Shown: positions 2,293 through 17,868 of the stretch, piece by piece
Position numbering within the stretch: the stretch's first letter is position 1
Layout: each line of letters begins with the position of its first letter
Assembly (NCBI GenBank): GCA_028715785.1
Contig: JAQURC010000004.1
Location: 21,885 to 85,884 of the forward strand
Direction of reading: 5' to 3'
Origin: Candidatus Omnitrophota bacterium
GTDB taxonomy: Bacteria; Omnitrophota; Gorgyraeia; Gygaellales; Profunditerraquicolaceae
DNA: 64,000 nucleotides
Position numbers and translations under genes: made by a program
Notes under the pieces: model-generated
What the model was told of the DNA's origin: nothing
The model's input: only the letters and a program-made list of their open reading frames with translations
Databases searched by the model: none

Positions 2293-2994
2293 TTATTTGT
2301 TAAACCTAAAATTCACCAGATCCGCATCCTGCATTACATAATCTTTTTGCTCAAGCCGCATCTTGCCCGCCTGCTTGGCGCCGGTCTCTCCGCCGCAAGA
2401 AATAAAATCGCCAAAGCTTATGATCTCGGCGCGGATAAAACCCTGTTGGATATCGGAATGGATCGCTCCGGCTGCCTCCCAGGCAGTGGTCCCTTTCTTG
2501 ATCAACCAGGCGCGATTTTCTTTGTCTCCGACGGTAAGAAAACTTATAAAGCCGCTCTCCGCCAATACCCTGCCCAGCAAAACACCCATATTCTCCAGTT
2601 CCTCTTTATTTACTACAACCACCGGCTTAAGAGTAAAAAGGCCATACCCTGAGATGACTTCTTTTTCCTGACCGGTTAATCCGATTGCGGAAATAAAATC
2701 CTCCTTCTCCAGGGCCGCTTTCATTTTATCCAATATTATTTTTTCTTTTTCTTCCGGGGATTTACTCAGGCGGGTTTCCACAAAATCCAGGTCATGAAGG
2801 ATTAGATCCGTCTTGGCATCTTTGGGGATAATTATAGCATCTGCTTCGGCTGCCGCATCCTCACCGGCCAGCTCTACCTGAACGTAAGTTTTTTTCTTGG
2901 CGCAAACCAGTTTATCCGCCTGGTCGAGCTTGTCGTTTTTAACGTTATGTTTTCCCAAAACAGCTTCGGGTATGGCAAAAGCGCTTATTTTCAT
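2293..2994 (-). CDS. YchF/Obg-family GTPase homolog lacking the N-terminal P-loop G-domain. The 233-aa ORF covers only the helical insert and TGS/C-terminal domain, so it may be a pseudogene remnant.
   Basis: The C-terminus AWLIKKGTTAWEAAGAIHSDIQQGFIRAEIISFGDFI...DYVMQDADLVNFRFN matches the YchF C-terminal domain, and FTLKPVVVVNKEE matches the YchF helical domain. No G1-G3 motifs are present. The R1 repeat sits 12 nt upstream of its ATG. Confidence 0.6.
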   Translation of the reverse strand: MKISAFAIPEAVLGKHNVKNDKLDQADKLVCAKKKTYVQVELAGEDAAAEADAIIIPKDAKTDLILHDLDFVETRLSKSPEEKEKIILDKMKAALEKEDFISAIGLTGQEKEVISGYGLFTLKPVVVVNKEELENMGVLLGRVLAESGFISFLTVGDKENRAWLIKKGTTAWEAAGAIHSDIQQGFIRAEIISFGDFISCGGETGAKQAGKMRLEQKDYVMQDADLVNFRFNK

Positions 2995-3006
2995 AATAGG
3001 AATCTA

Positions 3007-3087
3007 GGGGACGGTCCTGTTTTTCTATACTTTGTAGCTGACGTTTAAACGTCAGCTACTCTGTGGATAACAAATAGAACCGTCCAC
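3007..3087. repeat. Palindromic intergenic repeat family R1, copy b. Central perfect palindrome at 3034-3059, DnaA-box consensus TGTGGATAA at 3062-3070.
   Basis: 64 nt identical to copy a. It lies between the kamA stop (3094) and the ychF-like start (2994). Confidence 0.85.
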
Positions 3088-3093
3088 TTTATT

Positions 3094-4281
3094 TTATTCC
3101 AGGTAGGTGTAAATCTTGCCCTTATAATTGCGCAGCACATATTTACCCTTGGCCTGGGAAAGGATATAATTTGGCCCCACAGGTATCTTTCCGCCGCCGC
3201 CGGGCCCGTCGATAACATAGGTCGGAACGGCGTAACCTGAAGTATGCCCGCGCAATTTCTCGATAATATTTATCCCCACGGCTACCGGGGTGCGGAAATG
3301 CTGTGTGCCCCTTACCGGGTCGCACTGATAAATATAATATGGCCTTACTCTCATTTGCAGAAGATCATGCATCAGGCGCTTCATAATAAACGGCCGGTCG
3401 TTGATGCCCTTAAGGAGCACCGACTGGCTGCCTAAAGGTATGCCGCTTTCAGAAAGCAAATCGCAGGCATTCTTGCAGCGCTTAGTAATCTCTTTGGGAT
3501 GATTAAAATGGATGCTCATCCAGATAGGAGAATATTTCTTGATCATATTTACCAGATTTTCGGTAACCCGCTGCGGTAAAGTTGCCGGGATACGCGTACC
3601 GATCCTCAACAATTCGACATGCGATATGTCGCGGATCTTGGCAATCAGGGATTCCAATGCCTCATCCTCTAAGGTAAGCGGATCCCCTCCGGAAATCAAT
3701 ACATCCCTGATCTTACGGTTAGCTTTAATATACTCTATGGCCGCATCGAATTTAGTTTCGGGGTTTGTTTCTTTTTCTTCATGATCACCCACGAGGCGCC
3801 GCCGGGTGCAATGCCGGCAATACATCGCGCAATGCTCCGTAGCCAATAAGAGGACCCTGTCCGGATAGCGGTGCACCAGATGCGGCGCCGGAGAATCCCG
3901 GTCTTCAGCGCAAGGATCGGCCATTTCGTGCGGGGAAATCGAGAATTCATCGCCGACCGGTACAGACTGCCTGCGGATGGGGCAATCCGGATCTTCGGTA
4001 TCAATCAGGCTTGCCCAATAAGGAGTAACGGCCATGGCCAACCTTCCCTTGGCTTTATCAATTCCTTTTTCCTCCTGGGGAGTAAGTTTAATGATCTGGG
4101 TCAATTCTTCCTTGGTGCGTATCCTGTGTTTAAGCTGCCAATGCCAATCCTCCCAATCCAACGGGTTGACATCCTTAAAGAGCGGGATCTGCTGATAATC
4201 GCGCCAACGCCTCGGAGGCCGCGGCATAACCGGCGTTTCAATTTGTGTTTTTTGGTTTTCTGAACCTTCGGGGTTACTCAA
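3094..4281 (-). CDS. kamA: Lysine 2,3-aminomutase family radical-SAM enzyme (KamA/EpmB-like).
   Basis: Radical SAM cluster motif CAMYCRHCTRRR, then ISGGDPL and the KamA-family C-terminal region. The ORF carries a roughly 50-aa N-terminal extension. Its start overlaps the stop of the upstream ATP-grasp gene by 4 nt. Confidence 0.85.
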   Translation of the reverse strand: MSNPEGSENQKTQIETPVMPRPPRRWRDYQQIPLFKDVNPLDWEDWHWQLKHRIRTKEELTQIIKLTPQEEKGIDKAKGRLAMAVTPYWASLIDTEDPDCPIRRQSVPVGDEFSISPHEMADPCAEDRDSPAPHLVHRYPDRVLLLATEHCAMYCRHCTRRRLVGDHEEKETNPETKFDAAIEYIKANRKIRDVLISGGDPLTLEDEALESLIAKIRDISHVELLRIGTRIPATLPQRVTENLVNMIKKYSPIWMSIHFNHPKEITKRCKNACDLLSESGIPLGSQSVLLKGINDRPFIMKRLMHDLLQMRVRPYYIYQCDPVRGTQHFRTPVAVGINIIEKLRGHTSGYAVPTYVIDGPGGGGKIPVGPNYILSQAKGKYVLRNYKGKIYTYLE

Positions 4282-5279
4282 TTCAGCCTTTTCCTTTCCG
4301 AGGCACTCATCAGTATTGCCTCAATAAGATCCTCATACCTCATCCCTGCGGCATATGCCATTATAGGAAAATTGGATTCTTTGGGGTCTAATCCCGGTAA
4401 AGGGTTGATCTCCAGGACATACGGCACATTAAATTTATCCAAACGGATGTCGGTCCGGGAAATATCCAAACAGCCTACGGCACGGTGCGTACGTAAAGCC
4501 ACGTCCTTTACCCTTGCTTCTATATCTTTATCCAGCCTTGCCGGGCAATGGAATTCAGGGACCAGCCCCAATTCGCTGTTACCCTGGAACTCTTTCATCT
4601 TCCAGGAATAAAAATACTCCCCGCTTTTTTTACAATTGGAAAAATCGATCTCTAAAATCGGAAGCACGCGGGTTTTTCCATTTTCCAAGATCCCCACGGT
4701 CAACTCTTTGCCTACGATAAATTCCTCAACCAGGGCCTCCTGCCGGTACACGTCTATAGACTCCCTGACCTTCTTGAAAAGGTCTTCTTTATTTTCAACG
4801 ACGTTGGTCTTGTTTATCCCCTTTGCCGATCCTTCGCAATTAGGCTTGACAATCAACGGGAACCGCAGCTGCGCATCCAAAGGTTCATCCCCTTTGACAA
4901 AAAGCTGAAAATTGGGGGTGGGGATATTTTCCGCCTGTAATATTTTCTTGGTCAGCCCCTTATTCAATGCCAGGGCCAAAGAGAAGGTGTCTGAACCGGT
5001 ATAAGGTATATTTAAATAATCCAGCACTGCCGGCACTTCGGATTCGCGGAACCTGCCTTGTTTGCCTTCGGCGATATTAAATACCATATCTACGCGATTT
5101 TTCCTGAAATATGAAAATAAGGCCGGATACTCCACATCGATTGCCTCGACGGAATGGCCTTTGTTTTTAAGGGCCGAAACAACGCAATTGATCGTTTCCT
5201 CCGAATCGCATTCGGAGAAATAATCCGCCGGCTTTTGCGGGTCTTTCTTTTTTAAATTGTAGGTCAGGGTAACTTTCAT
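4278..5279 (-). CDS. D-alanine--D-alanine ligase-family ATP-grasp ligase, paralog 1.
   Basis: Ddl-family hallmarks: FNIAEGKQGRFRESEVPAVLDYLNIPYTGSD, PLIVKPNCEGSAKGI, EALVEEFIVGKELTV and VLEINPLPGL. It is 333 aa long and directly abuts paralog 2. Confidence 0.8.
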   Translation of the reverse strand: MKVTLTYNLKKKDPQKPADYFSECDSEETINCVVSALKNKGHSVEAIDVEYPALFSYFRKNRVDMVFNIAEGKQGRFRESEVPAVLDYLNIPYTGSDTFSLALALNKGLTKKILQAENIPTPNFQLFVKGDEPLDAQLRFPLIVKPNCEGSAKGINKTNVVENKEDLFKKVRESIDVYRQEALVEEFIVGKELTVGILENGKTRVLPILEIDFSNCKKSGEYFYSWKMKEFQGNSELGLVPEFHCPARLDKDIEARVKDVALRTHRAVGCLDISRTDIRLDKFNVPYVLEINPLPGLDPKESNFPIMAYAAGMRYEDLIEAILMSASERKRLN

Positions 5280-6293
5280 CTAATTTAATCCGTTGCGCGC
5301 AATAGCGCTGCTTAGGATCTTGCCGACCATCTGGTCGTAAGTAATGCCGATATTTTTGGCAACAAGCATAAAAACATCTTCGGTAGATAGGGAAGGCAGC
5401 GGATTTATCTCCAGCACATAAGGGTTGCCGTCATTATCGACCCTGAAATCCACCCTGCCAAAATCCCGGCACTCGACGCTGCGATAAACCTTTAAAGCCA
5501 GCTCATCCAGCTTTTTCTTTAAATCATTGGTTATCTTTGCCGGGCAGATATATTCTAACCTGTCGGAAGTAATTCGCGCAAAGGTATAAAATTTGTCGTT
5601 TAATTTTAATTTTCCGTCTATCTTTATCTGCACTACCGGCATAACTTCGGGGTCCTGATTACCGACCAGCGCCACGGTGAACTCCTGCCCGGAGATAAAT
5701 TCCTCGACTAAAGCCGGCTGTTTGTAGGTTTTAGTGATAAAATCCACTTGTTTCTTAAGTTCATCGGCGCTTTCCACGCGCGAGTTTTCACTGAGGCCTT
5801 TGGATGAGCCTTCGAAGCGCGGCTTGACAATCAACGGGAACCGGCAATGGTCCTGGTCAATCAAAGCCTCCGCGGAACTTACTTCGAAAAACTTAGGGGT
5901 GGGGATTTTTTCGGCGATAAAAATTTTTTTGGCCATCACCTTATCCAGGGTGAGCCCCAAAGTCAAGGCGTCTGCTCCGACAAAAGGAACTCCGGCCATT
6001 TCCAGCAAAATCGGCACCTGGGATTCGCGGTTCCTGCCGGTTAAACCCTCGGAGATATTAAAAACAATATCTACCCCCAAATTATCGATTTTTTCCAGCA
6101 AGTTATTGGCATTGCCTATCTTCTTTACTTTAAAACCGTTGGCGGCAATGGCTTCGGCGATAACATTGATCGTCGAAAGGGCGTCAAACTCCGCGTTGGC
6201 ATCAAGCGGATCCCCTTCCTTGAATTTATAATCTGTTTTTAAATCGTAGGTTAATCCCACAGTTTTCATGATTTTATCTCTTTTTACCGCCAT
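5280..6293 (-). CDS. D-alanine--D-alanine ligase-family ATP-grasp ligase, paralog 2.
   Basis: Same motif set as paralog 1: FNISEGLTGRNRESQVPILLEMAGVPFVGAD, PLIVKPRFEGSSKGL, PALVEEFISGQEFTV and VLEINPLPSL. It is 337 aa long and is the first gene of the tightly packed three-gene cassette. Confidence 0.8.
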   Translation of the reverse strand: MAVKRDKIMKTVGLTYDLKTDYKFKEGDPLDANAEFDALSTINVIAEAIAANGFKVKKIGNANNLLEKIDNLGVDIVFNISEGLTGRNRESQVPILLEMAGVPFVGADALTLGLTLDKVMAKKIFIAEKIPTPKFFEVSSAEALIDQDHCRFPLIVKPRFEGSSKGLSENSRVESADELKKQVDFITKTYKQPALVEEFISGQEFTVALVGNQDPEVMPVVQIKIDGKLKLNDKFYTFARITSDRLEYICPAKITNDLKKKLDELALKVYRSVECRDFGRVDFRVDNDGNPYVLEINPLPSLSTEDVFMLVAKNIGITYDQMVGKILSSAIARNGLN

Positions 6294-6564
6294 TAATCCG
6301 GGAAGTTGGCTCCAAGCCTTGCTTTTTTAATGAAATCCTTGATAATTTAACCCCCATGGTATAAAAAAAGGGCCCGGTTTAAATTACTTTTGCCGCAAGC
6401 CCATTATGAATCTATCCAATTTTTTCCAACTTAGTTTATCAACCTCCAAAATTTTATGCAAAATATTGTATCTATGTTATTTTTTTACCACAATATATTG
6501 TCATTGTCAAGCATTTTTTGCTCAAAAAGAATCTGGCGCCGGTTATTGTTACCGTCGGGAAATG

Positions 6565-7195: not shown

Positions 7196-8212
7196 TCAGT
7201 TCCCCTTATCATTATTCTTCCTGAAAAGATCCAGGAACTTATCTTCATATTCCTTATAAACATTCCACTTATCCAGCTCGGCTTTTAATTCATTTGCCTT
7301 GGCAATATTCAGGCGGCTTTCTGTAAAAAGCTTTTCGATCTTTTCTTTTACCGAAGCAGGCAGTTTAGTGAGCTGGCTTAAAGTTTTTTTAATCAACTCC
7401 ACCTCTTCTTCGCCGATAGGGGCGGATTGGCCGGATGCGCCTAAATTCAAATAATCAAGAAGTTTATTAATTTCATTCTCCATGTTCTGCGCTTGTTCTT
7501 TTAGCGGCTGCACATTTATCTGTATATCCAATATTTTTCCCAGCCCCTGAAGCACCGCAGCCGAAGCCTTGGGATTTTCAATCTGGATAGTATAAAGGGG
7601 GATGTCTCCGAGCAGGCAAAAGCCGGCTAACCCGGCCTTCTTGGCTATCCCTAAAAATAAACCGTTCATTCCGCTGATCTGGCCGTCGGTTAGCTCGTTA
7701 AAATCATATTTCTTTAAGCCCTCTTTGGTTTTTTGGTCCGTAGCCGCAAACCACAGATGCGAATCCTGCGTGTGGTCGGTTGCCTGGGGCATCGAGGCAA
7801 AACTGACGACTGACTCTACGCCCAGGCTTTTTGCCAGGCCGATAATTATCCTGGCATAACTGTCTGCTTTGGATAGATCCGGCTGGGCATTGCTTAGGAA
7901 AATAACCAGGTCATTTTTTCCGGAGCCGCCGCGTTTGGCGGCGGGATTTTTCCAATAATAAAATTTACCCTGCGGCAGCGGCGGGACCTCTAATACCCCT
8001 TGAGAAATTACGCTGCCGGTTAAATAAAAAAACTCCTCCGGGGCAATACTGGCGAATTCAACCGCTTTTAATTCCTGGACCAGGTAATTGGCGGCCTTAA
8101 ACGCCACCTCCCCCATGCCCGGCCAGGCGGCAATAAGGTAAGGTTTTTTAAGCCGGGGTTTTTTAGAAATTATCAAAGGCTCCATATCATAGCTCCTTCG
8201 GTTAGGTATCAA
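7196..8212 (-). CDS. PAC2-family protein (proteasome-assembly-chaperone-like fold).
   Basis: N-terminal LIAAWPGMGEVAFKAANYL resembles the PAC2 family signature. The C-terminal 90 aa are predicted coiled coil. The family assignment is from memory and is not verified. Confidence 0.4.
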   Translation of the reverse strand: MIPNRRSYDMEPLIISKKPRLKKPYLIAAWPGMGEVAFKAANYLVQELKAVEFASIAPEEFFYLTGSVISQGVLEVPPLPQGKFYYWKNPAAKRGGSGKNDLVIFLSNAQPDLSKADSYARIIIGLAKSLGVESVVSFASMPQATDHTQDSHLWFAATDQKTKEGLKKYDFNELTDGQISGMNGLFLGIAKKAGLAGFCLLGDIPLYTIQIENPKASAAVLQGLGKILDIQINVQPLKEQAQNMENEINKLLDYLNLGASGQSAPIGEEEVELIKKTLSQLTKLPASVKEKIEKLFTESRLNIAKANELKAELDKWNVYKEYEDKFLDLFRKNNDKGN

Positions 8213-9332: not shown

Positions 9333-9960
9333 GGAGCGGGCAAATTCCGCATTTAGGATCCTGCTTGCGGCAGTAATCCTTGGCTAATTTCACTAAAAGA
9401 GCGTGATACTCATTAAACAGTTTCGCATCCTTCTTAAGGTTAGACATAAAAATATCCTGCACTTGAGAATAATCGGCTGCTTCTTTGATTAATCCGTGCC
9501 GTAAAAATATCCTTTTGGTATAGGCATCGACGACAAATATGGGTTTATTTAAAGCGTAAAGCAATATGGAATCGGCGGTCTCCGGGCCGATGCCGTTTAC
9601 CGCCAGCAATTGCCTGCGCAGGCGCGTTAAATCCTGGGCAGCCATGGATTTAATTTTTGCCGCATAGTTATCCAAGAAAAATTTTAGGAAGCTTTTAAGC
9701 CGGGCCGCTTTAACATTATAATACCCGGCGCTCCTAATCAAACCGGCAAGCTTTTTTGGCTTAAGCCGATAAAGTTTCCGGGGGTTTAATAATTTCTTTT
9801 CTTTAAGGGCTGTAACTGCCTTTTCAACATTGGACCAATTGGTATTCTGGGTAAGGATTGCCCCCACCATCACTTCAAAAGCAGTATCGGCAGGCCACCA
9901 ATGCTGCGCTCCAAAGGCAGAATAAAGCCGCCTGAATATGCGGTTTAACTTATGCTTCAT
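9322..9960 (-). CDS. Endonuclease III-like HhH-GPD base-excision repair protein with a C-terminal 4Fe-4S Cys cluster.
   Basis: VMVGAILTQNTNWSNVEKA, the HhH motif LLAVNGIGPETADSIL, the catalytic-region VVDAYTKRIF and the C-terminal C-X6-C-X2-C-X5-C. Confidence 0.75.
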   Translation of the reverse strand: MKHKLNRIFRRLYSAFGAQHWWPADTAFEVMVGAILTQNTNWSNVEKAVTALKEKKLLNPRKLYRLKPKKLAGLIRSAGYYNVKAARLKSFLKFFLDNYAAKIKSMAAQDLTRLRRQLLAVNGIGPETADSILLYALNKPIFVVDAYTKRIFLRHGLIKEAADYSQVQDIFMSNLKKDAKLFNEYHALLVKLAKDYCRKQDPKCGICPLHGQ

Positions 9961-11897
9961 TCTTTAAGCTCTAAAGGATTAAAACCGTAATAGGCAAAAA
10001 GAGTATATGCCGTGCCGGAAACTGATCCGGTATGGCTGCCTTTAGGAGTCATCCAGCCGTGCCCGGTATCAACATGCTCTTGAGTAGCATAAGGCAGGCA
10101 GCCTTCTCCCTGCCCGGAGGGAGAAGAGCTGGAAATAACCATGTTCCCTAATTCACTCAGGTACATCTGCGCTTTTTTCCCATAATCAACCGCTTTAGGC
10201 ATATCCGCGCCGCCTTTAGAATAAAAATCTTCCATGATTTTATAAGACACGACCATCTGGGCAGTCCACTCCGAAGAAACCACGCCGCCGCGGGCTGTAT
10301 GCAGCTGCGGAGCAAAATCAAACCCTTTTATCTTTACGCTCTGGCCGTTTAAGCGCAGGAAATCCGCCTCAACCCCGCAATTCTCTTCGACAAACCCCAT
10401 AATTTTATCCGGATCCATCCCCAGCTCTTTGAGTTTCCGCGGGCCGATCGCGGCGATCGACCAGGCATAAGTATCCGTGGCAATAGTCGAATCCCCTTTA
10501 CCGCGCTTAACCGGCAGATCCGGCCGGTCATAGGTATGCTCAAGAAGCCAGGTGATCGTCTTTTGGCCGGCTTGCGCGTATTTTTTCTTCCCCGTAACCT
10601 TAGCCAGCATATTAAAAAACGCATAAGCATCGAGATTATGTTCCGTAGAATACCAATCTATTTCCGGGCCGCCGCGAAGGCCGCCGTCTGCATCCGCGTT
10701 CTGCAGGTCAATAATCGTTTGGGCGATACTTTCAGCTAACCCCAGATAACTCTTATCCTTACTACCCTGCATATACTGCATAATAGCCAGGCCTACCCAG
10801 AGATTGGGCCCGCTGTGCATGATAAATTCCGCCGGGGCTCCGTCATTGACATAATAGGCATTAAGGAACCAGCCATTTTCTCTTTTGGCCTTATGAGCAA
10901 AAAATTCCAGGATTTTTTTTGCGCGGTCAAAATCCCCAAAATAAGTATAGACCTGGATAAGCAAGGCCAGATCGTAAGTAAATGACCAGTTGGCAATATC
11001 TTGATCCCCTTCAAAACTCGATACCAGACCGGTGCGGTTATTCTGATGCACCTTAAGCCATTGGTACATCTTGTCAAAATTAGCTTTTTCAAGGACTACT
11101 TTCTTTTCATCTAACCGGGATAATTCTTTAACCGCGACATTTTCAGTGCGCAAGGCATCGGTTAATTTACTTTCTAAAACAAGTCTCTCCGCGGTTAAGG
11201 CGGCGATCGATTCGTTAAGCTGCTTGATCTGATTCAGATTACTTGCTTCGGTTTGGGCTTTTTGCGACTCAACAGATTTAATCCTCTCTTCTAAATCTTT
11301 CAGCCGCACCTGAAGGTCCTGCCGCTGCGCAACGATTTCCCCTATTTTTTGTTCGGCCAGGCGGGAATCTTTTAATACGCCGGCCAGCCTTTCAACCAGC
11401 AGCTTATTACTGCGGGTTAAGTTAAAATTCAGATAACTATTGATACCTAAAATTAAGGTGACGAATACAATCGCCGATAAAGCCACCGGAATAAAAAGCT
11501 TTTTTAACCAGGCATAGCGCATCAATTCATTATTCTGCTTGGCTGATATACGGTCATAATTTAATCCTACCTGGCATTTGCGCTTGCCTTCGGAGGTTTC
11601 TTTGAACCAGACAATACTGGCTTGGGCGGGAATCGATTTTTTACTAACGGGGATGTCGATCTCCAGTGATAATTTGCATTTCTTCTCTTTGATCAGCTTA
11701 AGCATCTCCGGGCCGATATTATTGATGAAAAGGCAGATGCCGCCGCGGCCGATATTATTCGTAAAGCCCTGCAGCCAGCTGGAAAGAAAAGTCTTACCAT
11801 CCAGGTCCTCCAGGCGAAACTGCACCGGAAACACCGTATCCAAACGCAGGTATTTACGCTGCTCTACTGCCGGCTTTATTTTATTTTTAAATGACAT
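9957..11897 (-). CDS. Multidomain protein: N-terminal PilZ domain, one TM helix, a long coiled coil, and a C-terminal (alpha/alpha)-toroid glycoside-hydrolase-like domain.
   Basis: PilZ motifs RKYLRLDTVFPVQF and NIGRGGICL. Hydrophobic segment LFIPVALSAIVFVTLILGI. Heptad-rich region 170-290. The C-terminal 350 aa are Trp/Tyr-rich, which suggests a six-hairpin glycosidase-like fold. Confidence 0.55.
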   Translation of the reverse strand: MSFKNKIKPAVEQRKYLRLDTVFPVQFRLEDLDGKTFLSSWLQGFTNNIGRGGICLFINNIGPEMLKLIKEKKCKLSLEIDIPVSKKSIPAQASIVWFKETSEGKRKCQVGLNYDRISAKQNNELMRYAWLKKLFIPVALSAIVFVTLILGINSYLNFNLTRSNKLLVERLAGVLKDSRLAEQKIGEIVAQRQDLQVRLKDLEERIKSVESQKAQTEASNLNQIKQLNESIAALTAERLVLESKLTDALRTENVAVKELSRLDEKKVVLEKANFDKMYQWLKVHQNNRTGLVSSFEGDQDIANWSFTYDLALLIQVYTYFGDFDRAKKILEFFAHKAKRENGWFLNAYYVNDGAPAEFIMHSGPNLWVGLAIMQYMQGSKDKSYLGLAESIAQTIIDLQNADADGGLRGGPEIDWYSTEHNLDAYAFFNMLAKVTGKKKYAQAGQKTITWLLEHTYDRPDLPVKRGKGDSTIATDTYAWSIAAIGPRKLKELGMDPDKIMGFVEENCGVEADFLRLNGQSVKIKGFDFAPQLHTARGGVVSSEWTAQMVVSYKIMEDFYSKGGADMPKAVDYGKKAQMYLSELGNMVISSSSPSGQGEGCLPYATQEHVDTGHGWMTPKGSHTGSVSGTAYTLFAYYGFNPLELKE

Positions 11898-11983: not shown

Positions 11984-12571
11984 TTAGGCGGGCTTAAAAG
12001 CAAAAAGGCTGGAGAAGCTGGTAAAACCGGTAATACCTTTTTGCGCGCAGATGATTTTAAGCCTGGTAAAAACCTCCCAGGTCATCTCCACGTCGGAAAG
12101 GGCCCGGTGCTCTTGTTTTGCCTCCACTCCCAGCTTCTGCGCTACAAACCAAAGCGCGTAGCGGGGCAGATCCGGCATGAGCCTTTTGGCCATGGCCAAC
12201 ACGTCAAAAACAGCGATATTATCAATTGCAGGGAAGTCGATCAACTTAAGTTCACTATTCAAAAAACTTAAATCAAATCCCGCGTTGTAGGAGCAAAGGC
12301 AGCTGCCGGCAATAAAATCTAAAAACTTGGGCATTACTGTCTCTGTGGCCGGGGCGTCTTTTAACATCTCCGGAGTGATTTTATTTACGGCAAAAGCCTC
12401 GGGAGAAACCGGCCGGCCAGGATTGACTAAAGCATCAAATACAGCTAACCTCTGTTTGCCCTTGACCCGCAAGGCCGCCAGCTCAACAATACGGTCTCCG
12501 GCATCAGGATACAAACCGGTGGTCTCGGTATCAAATATGCTAAATTCTACTTCATCGATATCTTCAGGCAT
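11984..12571 (-). CDS. DnaQ-like 3'-5' exonuclease (DEDDh family).
   Basis: Exo I motif FSIFDTETTGL and Exo III region with HRALSDV. 195 aa. Confidence 0.8.
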   Translation of the reverse strand: MPEDIDEVEFSIFDTETTGLYPDAGDRIVELAALRVKGKQRLAVFDALVNPGRPVSPEAFAVNKITPEMLKDAPATETVMPKFLDFIAGSCLCSYNAGFDLSFLNSELKLIDFPAIDNIAVFDVLAMAKRLMPDLPRYALWFVAQKLGVEAKQEHRALSDVEMTWEVFTRLKIICAQKGITGFTSFSSLFAFKPA

Positions 12572-13460
12572 CGCCTGTTACGATATAGGCCGGAATTAAA
12601 CGCCTGGGCTTATAAGACAGCTTCACTTGGCGTAAATTCTCTAAACCTGAATCGTCCATAATATTAATATACTTATAATCTTCTAATTCCCGGCAAAACC
12701 GGCGAAAAATAAATTGCGCCAACCCTTTAACCGAAAGATCGGTTATTTCATAAAGGATGCAAAATGTATCGCTATTTAACCGGTACCCAAAACTAAAGGC
12801 TTTGATTTTTTTATCGCTCCTGACGACAATACCTTCTAAGCCCAGCTGTTTATAATTATCAAGCGCCTCTTTAATTACCTTGCGGTTGTCCTCAAGCATG
12901 CCGCGATAAAGATCGTCGCTGGATTGTGTTTTGCGCAGCGCCGCCCAGGAATTAAACAAACTTAAGCAACTGTCTTTATCCGCCAACTTCAACTTGCGCC
13001 AGTCAAAATCATAGTGTTTGATGAAATAATTACAGGAGGCGCGCTGGGATTTAAATTTATTCCCCCGTAGAAGCGCCAAATCGTCCTTTAAACAAAGGTA
13101 GTCGGGGTATTTCTCGCGGCCAAGATATCCTAAAGCACGATAATACTCCAAATCCCCCTCTTCAATATTTTCAATACGGCTGATATCTTTATTTTTATTA
13201 ATACTATCCATGACCGCAAAGGCCTGTTTTACAACTTGCGGCCTCTTTTCTTTTGCCAGCGGCCCCAGATACATAAAACAGCCGGTCTGATCGCGAAAAA
13301 ATACACAGAGGCTATTTTCAATAACAACCCAGCCGATATCATAGAGGGAGCGCCAGATGTAGATATTGGCAAAAGAGTAGGCTGCCAGCTCATGCGGGGC
13401 TAAAGCGAGATACCGGTTAAACAGCCTATGGTCTTTTAAAATTAATCTATTTAGTTTCAT
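12564..13460 (-). CDS. Stand-alone DUF2156-like protein. This is the MprF C-terminal domain type, a GNAT-fold putative aminoacyl-tRNA-dependent transferase.
   Basis: FANIYIW and LRGNKFKSQRASCNYFIKHY resemble the conserved segments of the phosphatidylglycerol lysyltransferase C-terminal domain. The start is taken as MKLNRL at 13460. The family assignment is unverified. Confidence 0.45.
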   Translation of the reverse strand: MKLNRLILKDHRLFNRYLALAPHELAAYSFANIYIWRSLYDIGWVVIENSLCVFFRDQTGCFMYLGPLAKEKRPQVVKQAFAVMDSINKNKDISRIENIEEGDLEYYRALGYLGREKYPDYLCLKDDLALLRGNKFKSQRASCNYFIKHYDFDWRKLKLADKDSCLSLFNSWAALRKTQSSDDLYRGMLEDNRKVIKEALDNYKQLGLEGIVVRSDKKIKAFSFGYRLNSDTFCILYEITDLSVKGLAQFIFRRFCRELEDYKYINIMDDSGLENLRQVKLSYKPRRLIPAYIVTGDA

Positions 13461-13471
13461 GATGATGAAAC

Positions 13472-13535
13472 GGGACGTCCTCAAAAGGGACACCCTGCTA
13501 TATGTTACAAGGGTGTCCCCGCGGAGGACGTCCCC
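13472..13535 (-). other. Large nested perfect hairpin. It spans the stop codon of the YkgJ-like gene and ends 12 nt before the DUF2156 start.
   Basis: The outer stem GGGACGTCCTC / GAGGACGTCCC is 11 bp. The inner stem GGGACACCC / GGGTGTCCC is 9 bp. The 15-nt loop contains the TAA stop at 13505-13507. Confidence 0.7.
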
Positions 13536-14674: not shown

Positions 14675-14843
14675 CGGGTTTGCTTCCTTTCTTAAAATAC
14701 TCCGGCCATTTTGGCTTTGGCGGCGTCTCAAAACCGCAATTCGGGCATCTAATAAGCTTGCAACCTTTCATAACAGGGCAACTTTTGCAGGCTTCTTCTG
14801 CCTTTTTCTCGTTAAATTCATATCCGCATAAACTACATTTCAT
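14661..14843 (-). CDS. Small Cys-rich zinc-ribbon protein (60 aa) inside the feo operon. It may be FeoC-like or a FeoB-associated Cys-rich protein.
   Basis: MKCSLCGYEFNEKKAEEACKSCPVMKGCKLIRCPNCGF carries CxxC, CxxC and CxxC pairs. Its ATG overlaps the feoB stop in an ATGA arrangement. It falls below the ORF-track length cutoff as an independent start. Confidence 0.5.
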   Translation of the reverse strand: MKCSLCGYEFNEKKAEEACKSCPVMKGCKLIRCPNCGFETPPKPKWPEYFKKGSKPDENK

Positions 14844-16288
14844 AGGCTGATTCCCAAAATATTTAATATAAGATTCATTATAAATCCTGCGGTAAACGAG
14901 AAAAGCAGGATAAAGACTGAAATCCCCACACCGGTTTTCCAGCCCCTTTCTTTCACATTCATCAAAAATTGCGCGATACAAGGCAAAAACAATGTCAAAG
15001 TTACGCAGGCCACGACCAGCTGATTGCCGGTAAATAACCCCGCCTTTTTAATATCATACAGCCCGCCGGCGCCATAATCTCTCCTAAAGAATCCGAATAA
15101 GAAGGCAACCGCGGTTTTATCCGGCAAGCCAATCCAGCGGATAGGGTATTCTAAAATTTTGGTAAGCAAGCTAAACAGGCCCGTGATCTGGCCGATCCAG
15201 ATCATCATACTTGCCAATATAAACATGGGGAATATCTCCATAAAATACCATTTGACTCTCGTATAGGTTTTGATAAACACATTGGATAATTTAGGCAGCC
15301 GCAGAGGCGGGATTTCCATATAAAACGACGGCGAATCTCCCGGCAACACCTTGGAAGAAAGGAACCCTATTAAAACAAAAACCAATCCTACCACCCCTGC
15401 CCAGATCCACAATCCCTTGCTATTTCCTTCTAGCAAAGAAAGAATTACCCCCAACTGCGCTGCGCAAGGAATGGCTAAAGCGAGCAAAATAGTAGCAATA
15501 ATTCTTTCCCTTTTTGTAGGAAGTGTCCGGGTAACCATTGTCGCCATCGTATCGCACCCCAAGCCAAGGACCATGGGTATTACCGCCCTTCCGGTTAAGC
15601 CAATTTTTTTAAAAATCCTGTCTATCAATAAGGCCAGGCGCGGCAGATAACCCGTATCCTCGATAATTGCAAAGGCGATAAAGAACGTTGTGACGATAGG
15701 TAATATCAAAGCTACGGCATAACGCAGGCCTAAAGTGATCATCCCGTATTCACCCACAAATAATTCACGGAACAAATGCCGGGGGATAATTGAGCTGACT
15801 ACTTGCGTTATCCAGGGATTGATATGATTTTCAAAGATATCTGTCTCAATGAAATCAACCACTGTGCCTGCGCCAAATTCACCCACAAATTTATAGATAC
15901 CACAATAAAGTATTACCAGCAAAATAGGTATGCCCGTAACAGGATTTATCATTACCCTGCTAAGTTTTTCCTTAAACGGCAATCCGGGCTTCGGCAAGTG
16001 CTCTATGGCTCCACTTACAATACTACTTGCTTCCTCCTGCCTGCGTTGAGAAATTATATAAGAAAGCGGCTCCTGAAAATGCGTTTTGGCATGATTTACG
16101 ATTTCCATAATCTGGGCAAAGCTTTCCGCTTCGCTGGATTTCACCAGCGACATAATCTCCTCATCCTCCTGAAGCAACAATAGGCCGATAGAACGCTTAG
16201 AGATGCCGTGGTCCGCTCCTAGTAAATTTTCTATCTTCTCCAAAGAGTTTTCTAAGATATCGCCGGGGTATTTACATGTTTCTGACAT
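14840..16288 (-). CDS. feoB: FeoB C-terminal part (helical GDI-like domain plus polytopic membrane permease), encoded as a separate gene.
   Basis: Gate-motif membrane core with multiple TM segments. It has its own SD GGGAGG 8 nt upstream of the ATG at 16288, and it overlaps the end of the G-domain gene by 17 nt in a different frame. Confidence 0.8.
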   Translation of the reverse strand: MSETCKYPGDILENSLEKIENLLGADHGISKRSIGLLLLQEDEEIMSLVKSSEAESFAQIMEIVNHAKTHFQEPLSYIISQRRQEEASSIVSGAIEHLPKPGLPFKEKLSRVMINPVTGIPILLVILYCGIYKFVGEFGAGTVVDFIETDIFENHINPWITQVVSSIIPRHLFRELFVGEYGMITLGLRYAVALILPIVTTFFIAFAIIEDTGYLPRLALLIDRIFKKIGLTGRAVIPMVLGLGCDTMATMVTRTLPTKRERIIATILLALAIPCAAQLGVILSLLEGNSKGLWIWAGVVGLVFVLIGFLSSKVLPGDSPSFYMEIPPLRLPKLSNVFIKTYTRVKWYFMEIFPMFILASMMIWIGQITGLFSLLTKILEYPIRWIGLPDKTAVAFLFGFFRRDYGAGGLYDIKKAGLFTGNQLVVACVTLTLFLPCIAQFLMNVKERGWKTGVGISVFILLFSFTAGFIMNLILNILGISL

Positions 16289-16850
16289 ATTCTTCAATCC
16301 TCCCTTTCAAGATATCTATGCCTCTGCCTGTGGTCGAGACGGTGGAAACAACAGGAACTTTTAAATCTTTTTCTAAATGCTGCGAGTTTATTTTCATGCC
16401 GATTTTTTCCGCCTCATCGATAATATTCAAAACCAGCACGACCTTAAGTTTGGCCTCGATTAACTGTAATGTAAGGGGCAGCATTCTCTCTAAGTTTTTG
16501 GCATCAACGATATGGATGATGATATCGGGTTTTTCTTCAATCAATATATTCCTGGCCACCCGCTCCTCTTCGGTAATCGGCAGCAATGAATACATGCCCG
16601 GTGTATCGATAACCTCAAGTTCCCTGTCGCCTATTCTGGTTTTTCCTCTGGCTACTTCAACTGTAGTCCCCGGATAATTGGATACCGTAACATATGCCCC
16701 TGTCAGGCGGTTAAACATAACAGATTTACCGACGTTAGGGCTGCCCACAATCGCAATTTTACTCAAATTACCCCTAATCTCTCCCCCTTTCTTGCCGCAA
16801 CAAGAACCTGTTGGCTTAAATCCTTTAAATAATTTGTTAACAAAATCCAT
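16272..16850 (-). CDS. feoB: FeoB N-terminal GTPase (G) domain, encoded as a separate gene.
   Basis: G1 GSPNVGKS, G2 PGTT, G3 DTPG and G4 NIID. An SD GGAG precedes the Met at 16850. The ORF ends exactly at the G-domain / helical-domain boundary. Confidence 0.8.
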   Translation of the reverse strand: MDFVNKLFKGFKPTGSCCGKKGGEIRGNLSKIAIVGSPNVGKSVMFNRLTGAYVTVSNYPGTTVEVARGKTRIGDRELEVIDTPGMYSLLPITEEERVARNILIEEKPDIIIHIVDAKNLERMLPLTLQLIEAKLKVVLVLNIIDEAEKIGMKINSQHLEKDLKVPVVSTVSTTGRGIDILKGRIEEYVRNM

Positions 16851-16887
16851 TGGGGTCTCCTCTCTCTTTTTCGTTCTAAAATAAGCC

Positions 16888-17868
16888 CTAAAATGTATAA
16901 ACAAAAGTAAAAACTACTGAATCGTTTGCATCAGCGTTAGTCCCTGTCACCACACGCTGATACGCTATTAAGGTTTGAATCTTATCATTTGACCAACCAA
17001 ACCCCGGAGCAATGGTCAAATAATTTATATTTGAATCAAGAGTTCTTGCTCCATTTTGTCTTTTATCTCCCTGCAGAAACCCGTTTGCCTCAAACATAAG
17101 ATTGAACCCTTTTGACAGAAAATATTCTACTCCGAAATCATAATTAAGGTAGTTTGCATAACGGGTCTTGACACCGTCAACGTGCGCTTGCTGCGGGAAA
17201 TTGTAGACGGCATCAGCATGAAAAATAAACGGTTTTAATTTCTTGCTAAGATTTATCCCAAACCCCTGATCCCAGGAACCGCCTCCTGATCCGGCACCCA
17301 TCAAATCCGCCCCTAACTTATCAGGATCCGCATTCTCATATTTTCCTGTGGGCATTTTAAGCTGAAACAATCCTGTTATATGAGGCATCCAGCCCTTTTC
17401 TTCAAGGGCACAGTAACGCATAAAAAGATAACTATCGCCAAGGCCTTCTGAATGAGCGCTGGAACCATCCTGTTTGACATAATTTTGCTGATAAACCATC
17501 TGGGCATCAAGCTCAAGCCTATTCGTAAGGCCATATTGGGCAAAAAGCTGTTGCTGAAACTGGTACTTCTTATCACCACCGGGTAAAGAATCATAGTGGC
17601 CATCCGCGTTGAAGGTGCCTCTGGTGCGGTTATAAAAGAAAAATGGCTGGATCACAAACTTGCCTTTGCCGCAAAGCGGCGCTGTCCAAGTAGTAAGCGG
17701 GCCTGCGGAAACCGGCTCCCATTCATCATGCGCTTCGTGGCTTTGCTCAGAGGAAAGCAAACCACCGCCCTCCGGCTTGTGACTTTCACTGTGAGCGAAA
17801 CTATAATCCGCTTGATTCAACAATATAAAACTTACAATCGCCGGAATTAACAATACCCCCTTAAACAT
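16888..17868 (-). CDS. Outer-membrane beta-barrel protein (putative porin) with a His-rich N-terminal segment.
   Basis: Signal peptide MFKGVLLIPAIVSFILLNQADYSFA. A mature His/Glu-rich stretch HSESHKPEGG..HEAHDEW. Alternating amphipathic strands and a C-terminal Phe (TFVYTF). Confidence 0.6.
   Translation of the reverse strand: MFKGVLLIPAIVSFILLNQADYSFAHSESHKPEGGGLLSSEQSHEAHDEWEPVSAGPLTTWTAPLCGKGKFVIQPFFFYNRTRGTFNADGHYDSLPGGDKKYQFQQQLFAQYGLTNRLELDAQMVYQQNYVKQDGSSAHSEGLGDSYLFMRYCALEEKGWMPHITGLFQLKMPTGKYENADPDKLGADLMGAGSGGGSWDQGFGINLSKKLKPFIFHADAVYNFPQQAHVDGVKTRYANYLNYDFGVEYFLSKGFNLMFEANGFLQGDKRQNGARTLDSNINYLTIAPGFGWSNDKIQTLIAYQRVVTGTNADANDSVVFTFVYTF

Follow-up and report, generated by a model that had tools for sequence, protein, structure and literature searches.

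A compact operon in a Candidatus Omnitrophota bacterium (assembly GCA_028715785.1) may direct the synthesis of a peptide or amide containing beta-lysine. It was found in a stretch of 64,000 nucleotides of contig JAQURC010000004.1 (positions 21,885 to 85,884 of the forward strand), which is called the window here and to which all coordinates refer unless another locus is named. Three genes on the minus strand, covering 3094-6293, encode two Ddl-like ATP-grasp ligases (lig1 and lig2) and a lysine 2,3-aminomutase (kamA). The reading that this triad is a self-contained operon for a beta-lysine-containing product was given a probability of about 0.6. Gene fusion, predicted translational coupling and conserved adjacency at three divergence depths show, at the level of gene organization, that the ligases would act with KamA.

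The genes are arranged in the order lig1 (5280-6293, 337 aa as an open reading frame (ORF)), lig2 (4278-5279, 333 aa) and kamA (3094-4281, 395 aa), the last of which encodes a radical S-adenosylmethionine/pyridoxal phosphate (PLP) enzyme and starts with TTG. The stop codon TAG of lig1 is followed immediately by the ATG of lig2, and the junction between lig2 and kamA reads TTGA, in which the lig2 stop TGA and the TTG start of kamA share 4 nt. Both the coordinates and these junctions, read from the sequence, confirmed an earlier note on this DNA, which had described three genes without spacers and a 4-nt overlap. kamA is predicted to be translationally coupled to lig2. The true start of lig1 is probably Met9 (ATG at 6269), giving a protein of 329 aa, because most database homologues have this length and an ATG was present at this position in 69 of 77 related loci.

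Judged by sequence, KamA is clearly a lysine-type 2,3-aminomutase and not EpmB. It was aligned with the Clostridium subterminale lysine 2,3-aminomutase structure 2A5H over residues 6-367 of 416, with 486.6 bits and 62% identity, and its sequence stops at the position matching residue 367, without the C-terminal domain by which the clostridial enzyme multimerises. The motifs CAMYCRHC (with the CxxxCxxC cluster), YIYQCD and IDGPGGGGK, with the PLP lysine in GGGGK, were retained, together with both Asp residues that bind the epsilon-amine of lysine (D293 and D330 in the C. subterminale numbering), in the alignment to 2A5H. KamA passed the model of the AblA lysine aminomutase (TIGR03820) with 526.9 against a cutoff of 525.4, a marginal pass since about 57 C-terminal model positions are absent from the truncated protein. 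Scores below the cutoffs were obtained with the models of glutamate 2,3-aminomutase (TIGR04368, 466.9 against 650), arginine 2,3-aminomutase (TIGR04468, 416.7 against 600) and EpmB (TIGR03821, 253.3 against 369.3). With the last model failed and the AblA model passed, the identity of KamA as an EpmB orthologue was ruled out.

The two ligases are related to each other by 39% identity (E 8e-71), in line with the divergence noticed before, and both carry the Pfam domain Dala_Dala_lig_C, with additional weak matches to TTL and RimK. Pfam and NCBIfam thereby bore out the families first assigned to the three proteins. Lig1 and Lig2 stayed under the cutoffs of all curated Ddl, Van and Ddl-subfamily models, with 162.2 and 160.2, respectively, against TIGR01205 (cutoff 245.65), and 188.7 and 200.8 against NF002378 (cutoff 243), the best Ddl model; NCBIfam has no dedicated model. 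Overall identity to Ddl was 24-29%. The predicted structure of Lig2 (predicted local distance difference test score 96.7) was superimposed on Ddl structures with template modelling (TM) scores of 0.80-0.88 at 24-28% identity, and the HMMER alignments of the ligases to Ddl structures began mainly at about residue 60.

Residues were numbered after E. coli DdlB, with a reference of 306 aa that agreed with the alignments to PDB structures. Of the residues for ATP, Mg and catalysis, K97, K144, E180, R255, D257, E270 and N272 were kept in both ligases, and so were E15 and S150 of the D-Ala-binding set. In both proteins H63 was replaced by Glu and E68 by Arg, and the region of the N-terminal GGxSxE motif was rebuilt. 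Y216 became Glu in Lig2 and was not preserved in Lig1, L282 was changed to Val or Asn in the ligases, and Lig1 had additional replacements of K215, G276 and S281, with Asp at position 281. This signature is family-wide, with E63 in 162 and R68 in 158 of 179 domains, and Y216 and L282 replaced. The full D-Ala-D-Ala-ligase motif set claimed in the earlier note was thus found only in part: the ATP, Mg and catalytic residues stood, but several D-Ala-binding residues were lost.

It had also been left for checking whether the ligases fall inside true Ddl; being below all Ddl cutoffs, with D-Ala-binding residues replaced, they are assigned by sequence to a separate sister clade of D-Ala-D-Ala ligase and would not be cell-wall enzymes. 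The neighbours of the triad are purH and genes for YchF-like, HAD, PAC2 and M20 proteins, and mur genes were absent both near the triad in the window and from the related loci. When the family profile was compared with the PDB, strong matches were restricted to Ddl-type ligases (194 bits), followed by the L-amino-acid ligase BL00235 (70.7 bits); since all strong matches were Ddl-type, no member of the ligase clade has a solved structure. The C-terminal substrate loop reads LDPKE(S/G)NFP in Lig2 and SLSTEDVF in Lig1, and the omega loops also differ, each loop being conserved within its own orthologue set, which suggests that the two ligases may differ in specificity. Existing database names for these proteins are "ATP-grasp domain-containing protein" or "D-alanine--D-alanine ligase (family protein)".

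A scan of a genome collection gave 80 loci with lig1 relatives at 76-92% identity, nearly all in Candidatus Omnitrophota metagenome-assembled genomes, with some labelled Planctomycetales. The triad was contiguous in all 66 loci containing the three genes. Median identity was 83-86% for Lig1, Lig2 and KamA, compared with 75% for PurH, 72.5% for the YchF-like protein and 67-76% for other neighbours in the same genomes. HAD was the gene directly upstream of the triad in only 27 of the 80 loci. The YchF-like gene came immediately after the triad in 26 of 66 loci and lay just downstream in 59 loci. Unrelated genes replaced the HAD, PAC2 and M20 flanks elsewhere. Because these flanks come and go and unrelated genes are inserted in other loci, the conserved unit is the triad and not the wider neighbourhood. 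The suggestion that the HAD, M20 and PAC2 genes belong to the same process was rejected on this synteny, while conservation of the triad as a unit, which had been proposed for checking, was found both within Omnitrophota and, at about 55% identity, in a deeper lineage. In other loci, inserts of 2 kb next to the triad carry genes for an EF-G-like GTPase, a glycosyltransferase, an O-antigen-ligase-like protein and others; these were considered as well, and none was consistently linked.

The wider family was collected by an exhaustive phmmer search with Lig2, which gave 1,135 cluster representatives at E<=1e-30, and 163 sequences were retrieved. Among them were 45 double-ligase fusions and two KamA-ligase fusions (P0160 and P0205), in which the ligase is attached to the C-terminus of KamA. 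The two KamA fusions are suggested to have arisen independently, because their ligase domains fall in different clades of a neighbor-joining (NJ) tree. Lig1 and Lig2 were also in different clades of this tree, with the single ligase partner of KamA as sister to the Lig2 clade. The single ligase of two-gene cassettes shares the loop LDPKE(S/G)NFP with Lig2, and from these comparisons Lig2 is predicted to be the primary KamA partner. The deeper lineage (L086, L087) had lig1-lig2-kamA in the same order at 52-61% identity, and five loci (L090-L094) had only one ligase with kamA, between the H+-PPase gene and cysE/lipB. A metagenome scan seeded with the single ligase gave only three close loci. In more distant versions, a KamA-ligase fusion was followed by a ligase-GNAT fusion (L083) or by a ligase and a GNAT (L084), and a double ligase was accompanied by a GNAT in L088. 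The GNAT partners of L083 and L084 were tried as AblB and gave no match to the AblB model.

Other family members were found apart from kamA. Double ligases with an adjacent Peptidase_S58 gene were located at 8001-11432 of L081, 3181-6368 of L085 and 676-3811 of L095. The fusions have about 680-720 aa, and the S58 gene overlaps the double-ligase gene in L085 and L095. Over its full length the S58 protein is homologous to DmpA and to BapA, a beta-peptidyl aminopeptidase (256 bits for BapA), and it may form with the double ligase a synthesis/hydrolysis pair for a (beta-)peptide. A lone ligase (L096, 7001-8005) was encoded directly after the Nop5 and fibrillarin genes of an archaeal contig, in a ribosomal gene context; therefore the family is not confined to murein-containing bacteria. 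Double fusions of about 700 aa were common in cultured Myxococcota, namely Stigmatella, Hyalangium, Corallococcus and Archangium. The Stigmatella fusion (L098, 9399-12178) had uninformative neighbours and was preceded by two small hypothetical genes, one of which overlapped its start.

The operon could be expressed from a single conserved promoter. The spacer upstream of lig1 (6294-6564, 271 nt) has a G+C content of 34.7%, against 45.1% for the window, and the AT-rich promoter region seen there earlier was found to contain a sigma-70-type promoter, TTGACA-17 nt-TGgTAAAAA (6482-6510, minus strand), kept as TTGACA-17 nt-TGnTAAAAA in 76 of 78 related loci examined. A generic promoter/terminator scan was set aside as evidence, its sites being no more numerous than those in shuffled sequence. 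The leader comparison revealed an attenuator candidate at 6363-6447 on the minus strand, composed of the Shine-Dalgarno sequence GGAGG (6443-6447), a mini-ORF TTG GAA AAA ATT GGA TAG (6412-6429, MEKIG*), a GC hairpin (6370-6402) and a T-run (6363-6369). The distance from GGAGG to TTG was 12-14 nt in 70 of 73 distinct leaders. The second codon of the mini-ORF is GAA or AAA and the third is AAA in 61 of 70; MEKIG*, MEK* and MKK* were the commonest peptides, with lengths of 3-6 codons. In 69 of 70 cases the stop was no more than 15 nt before the stem or was inside it. The GC hairpin was the only conserved structure of the leader, with compensatory changes in four of six core pairs, and no antiterminator helix was found.

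A riboswitch upstream of the operon was considered and rejected, since Rfam gave no leader match at E<=1 and RNAalifold no aptamer fold, and the mini-ORF leader was preferred. On sequence grounds the leader could be, speculatively, a ribosome-mediated attenuator keyed to the lysine codon and the lysine supply. The leaders of the deeper lineage (L086:6772-6936 and L087:1036-1200) instead have an element of several helices, closed and about 80 nt long, followed by a terminator, seen in these two sequences, in which P1 (GTGATGTG/CGCGTCAC) encloses the hairpin GCGATCTGTGGYGGATCGC. This element had no Rfam match and looks riboswitch-like by its predicted fold. In the single-ligase cassettes, the TTGACT/TATAAT promoter leaves almost no leader.

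In the proposed pathway, KamA would first turn L-lysine into (3S)-beta-lysine by radical-SAM/PLP chemistry, as expected from its close homology. Lig2 would then activate a carboxylate with ATP as an acyl-phosphate and form an amide bond with beta-lysine as one partner, a step proposed from gene linkage. Lig1, which is catalytically intact by sequence and has different substrate loops, could add a further residue or unit, so that the cell would make a small cytoplasmic dipeptide or tripeptide with beta-lysine, or a short oligomer. Expression may proceed from the conserved promoter through the mini-ORF leader ending at the intrinsic terminator, with lysine-linked attenuation as a speculative control. 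A small-molecule product would be favoured by the GNAT partners in other lineages, which suggest that the product has a free amine open to capping, by analogy with N-epsilon-acetyl-beta-lysine or N-acetylglutaminylglutamine amide (NAGGN).

Several points weigh against this pathway. Everything after the first step is drawn from gene linkage, and with only one ligase in the minimal module of other lineages, Lig1 and Lig2 could be a heterodimer for one reaction in place of the two successive ligations of the earlier note. The signature residues are shared with members without a nearby KamA, such as the Myxococcota fusions and the archaeal lone ligase, and therefore are not by themselves specific for beta-lysine. 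The very high conservation and the housekeeping neighbourhood would also fit the modification of an essential macromolecule. As for the leader, the spacing of 12-14 nt between GGAGG and TTG exceeds the usual and weakens the attenuator, the length of the mini-ORF is not conserved and an antiterminator fold was not found. The earlier interpretation as a whole was supported in part. Its core, KamA and the two ligases as one dedicated beta-lysine pathway apart from cell-wall Ddl and from modification of EF-P (elongation factor P), stood, with support from the invariant triad, its recurrence in the deeper lineage, the KamA fusions, the AblA score and the sub-cutoff ligases.

Among the alternatives, attachment of the KamA-made beta-lysine by the ligases to a protein (for example EpmA-independent beta-lysylation of EF-P or a ribosomal protein) or to a cell-envelope precursor survives best, and is still unlikely. 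The triad, whose conservation exceeds that of PurH, lies among housekeeping genes, an EF-G-like GTPase was present in 33 loci and the YchF-like gene in 59 loci just downstream, and the weak TTL and RimK matches of the ligases would agree with such a role. In addition, KamA shares with the EF-P-linked YjeK/EpmB the absence of the C-terminal multimerisation domain, which has been noted for that enzyme (PMC2821294). However, KamA is a lysine 2,3-aminomutase type with 62% identity to the canonical enzyme and scored 253 against an EpmB cutoff of 369. The ligases are ATP-grasp enzymes and not, like EpmA, a paralogue of an aminoacyl-tRNA synthetase, and no tblastn homologue of efp or epmA was found in the window and 1.27 Mb of related loci with the queries used. 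The translation-factor genes downstream can be parted from the triad, and the GNAT partners of the distant versions point to capping of a small molecule. To our knowledge the Ddl subfamily joins only small substrates, which also counts against a macromolecular target.

It is quite unlikely that the two modules build an oligo- or polyamide with beta-lysine, such as a beta-peptide, a cyanophycin-like reserve or a polycation; the same holds for its variant in which each module makes one kind of bond, or one primes and the other elongates. Catalytically intact modules recur paired or fused, 45 of the 163 representatives being double, and in three independent contexts the double fusions are beside a BapA/DmpA-type gene, usually overlapping it, a pairing which resembles cyanophycin synthetase and cyanophycinase. 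On the other hand, the S58-linked fusions have no nearby KamA, and the flanks of the Omnitrophota triad have no S58 gene. A primer-binding or extra domain was absent from the ligases in the domain search and in the model, and Ddl-type enzymes are dipeptide ligases. Similarly doubtful is the broader proposal that KamA-linked ligases and double-ligase fusions make natural beta-peptides, with the S58 peptidases as dedicated hydrolases.

Less probable again is a Lig1/Lig2 heterodimer that catalyzes a single beta-lysine ligation, in which the second gene would add no step. Ddl is a homodimer, related lineages use one ligase with KamA, the lig1 and lig2 genes abut and two-module fusions are common. 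All catalytic residues are nevertheless kept in both proteins, and the sharply different omega and C-terminal loops, conserved within each orthologue set, argue for two active sites with different substrates; moreover, the placement of Lig1 and Lig2 in different clades of the NJ tree means that they are not recent duplicates. That the ligases are the divergent peptidoglycan D-Ala-D-Ala ligases of the organism, with kamA beside them incidentally, is most improbable: Ddl was the best match in every library and fold search, and no other Ddl-like gene was found in the window or the loci examined, nor, by tblastn, a canonical ddl in the window and 1.27 Mb of related loci, but the scores are under all Ddl cutoffs, D-Ala-binding residues are replaced, a mur/dcw context is absent, KamA is fused to such ligases in other lineages, and one family member lies in the archaeal ribosomal/fibrillarin gene context.

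The proposed beta-lysine operon was compared with known systems. Ddl/VanA is the nearest family by sequence and has the same three-domain ATP-grasp fold (TM 0.80-0.88) and the same ATP, Mg and acyl-phosphate residues, whereas the triad ligases differ by their identity of only 24-29%, their scores under every curated cutoff, the changes H63E and E68R and those at Y216, S281 and L282, the GGxSxE region, the absence of mur context, and the coupling or fusion to KamA. The AblA/AblB pathway of methanogens and some bacteria has a common start with the triad, a lysine 2,3-aminomutase above the AblA cutoff, and in both the beta-lysine would be derivatised by the enzyme of an adjacent gene. Its partner is the acetyltransferase AblB, whereas that of the triad is two ATP-grasp ligases, and no GNAT was found in or beside the window triad by the ORF list and Pfam.

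Carnosine synthase, BacD/YwfE and BL00235 are also ATP-grasp enzymes, which join an unusual or beta-amino acid to another one as a free dipeptide, and among solved structures BL00235 ranked next after Ddl. Their ATP-grasp subfamily is not that of the triad ligases, and no carnosine synthase or L-amino-acid ligase is known to use beta-lysine or to be coupled to an aminomutase. In NAGGN synthesis, the bifunctional Ngg combines a GNAT and an ATP-grasp domain for acetylation and dipeptide formation. This logic may be mirrored by the ligase-GNAT fusion of L083 and the neighbouring ligase and GNAT genes of L084 and L088. The Omnitrophota triad differs in being without GNAT, and its substrate would be derived from beta-lysine instead of glutamine.

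The enzymes of the operon come from known superfamilies, and amino-acid ligase pathways are already a known kind. Beta-lysine is known to be acetylated to an osmolyte, transferred to EF-P by an enzyme like aminoacyl-tRNA synthetases, or incorporated into antibiotics by non-ribosomal peptide synthetases, and an ATP-grasp route, if true, would be a fourth kind of beta-lysine chemistry. The earlier note knew of no described pathway with this gene triad, and likewise no account of KamA combined with a Ddl-like ATP-grasp enzyme was found in a full-text literature search, which did not cover the amidoligase survey of Iyer et al. 2009. The only text with both kamA and ATP-grasp (PMC11237513) was irrelevant.

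The ligases represent an uncharacterised sister clade of Ddl, a much-studied antibiotic target, and in thousands of genomes and metagenomes automatic annotation wrongly labels members of this clade D-Ala-D-Ala ligase. Omnitrophota is a phylum of mostly uncultured nanobacteria, and the operon product would probably be central to their physiology, because it varies less between genomes than purine biosynthesis does. BapA-type beta-aminopeptidases have no known natural substrate, so the pairing of a ligase with a BapA-type enzyme offers a practical way into the metabolism of natural beta-peptides. If the beta-peptide reading is true, ATP-grasp synthesis and turnover of beta-peptides would be widespread, and the beta-aminopeptidases would have a physiological substrate. 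The Myxococcota carrying double-ligase fusions are genetically tractable organisms for this ligase family.

At the operon end, 3' of kamA, a perfect 26-nt palindrome GTAGCTGACGTTTAAACGTCAGCTAC was located (3034-3059) with a predicted hairpin of -17 kcal/mol, in agreement with the palindromic element at which the cassette had been said to end. An identical second copy was found at 510-535, 3' of purH, with zero expected by chance, so that both copies sit just 3' of minus-strand genes. The pair looks, by its sequence and placement, like a repeated element of the repetitive extragenic palindromic (REP) type or a terminator. The variable spacers of the related loci were filled by other palindromes.

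Some neighbouring genes were also noticed. The downstream YchF-like gene (2293-2994, minus strand) encodes 233 aa matching only the C-terminal part of YchF (DUF933/TGS-like), without the P-loop GTPase domain. An EF-G-like GTPase of about 650 aa was encoded between kamA and the YchF-like gene in 33 of the 59 loci having the latter. On the upstream side, the gene at 7196-8212 (minus strand) encodes a bacterial protein of the proteasome-assembly-chaperone family PAC2 with a C-terminal extension, and is common in Omnitrophota loci. A protein of 646 aa (9957-11897, minus strand), which has a PilZ domain at its N-terminus and a region weakly resembling GH76, was kept in many Omnitrophota loci.

About 6 kb from the operon, a stand-alone protein of 309 aa (12564-13493, minus strand) has the C-terminal domain of the phosphatidylglycerol lysyltransferase MprF (PF09924) without the membrane flippase part. 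It was syntenic in about 22 loci, and a link to lysine chemistry is possible. Further upstream, FeoB appears divided between two overlapping ORFs at 14840-16904 on the minus strand, one for the GTPase (16272-16904) and the other for the membrane domain (14840-16297); the gene may be truly split, or a frameshift or assembly error may be the cause.

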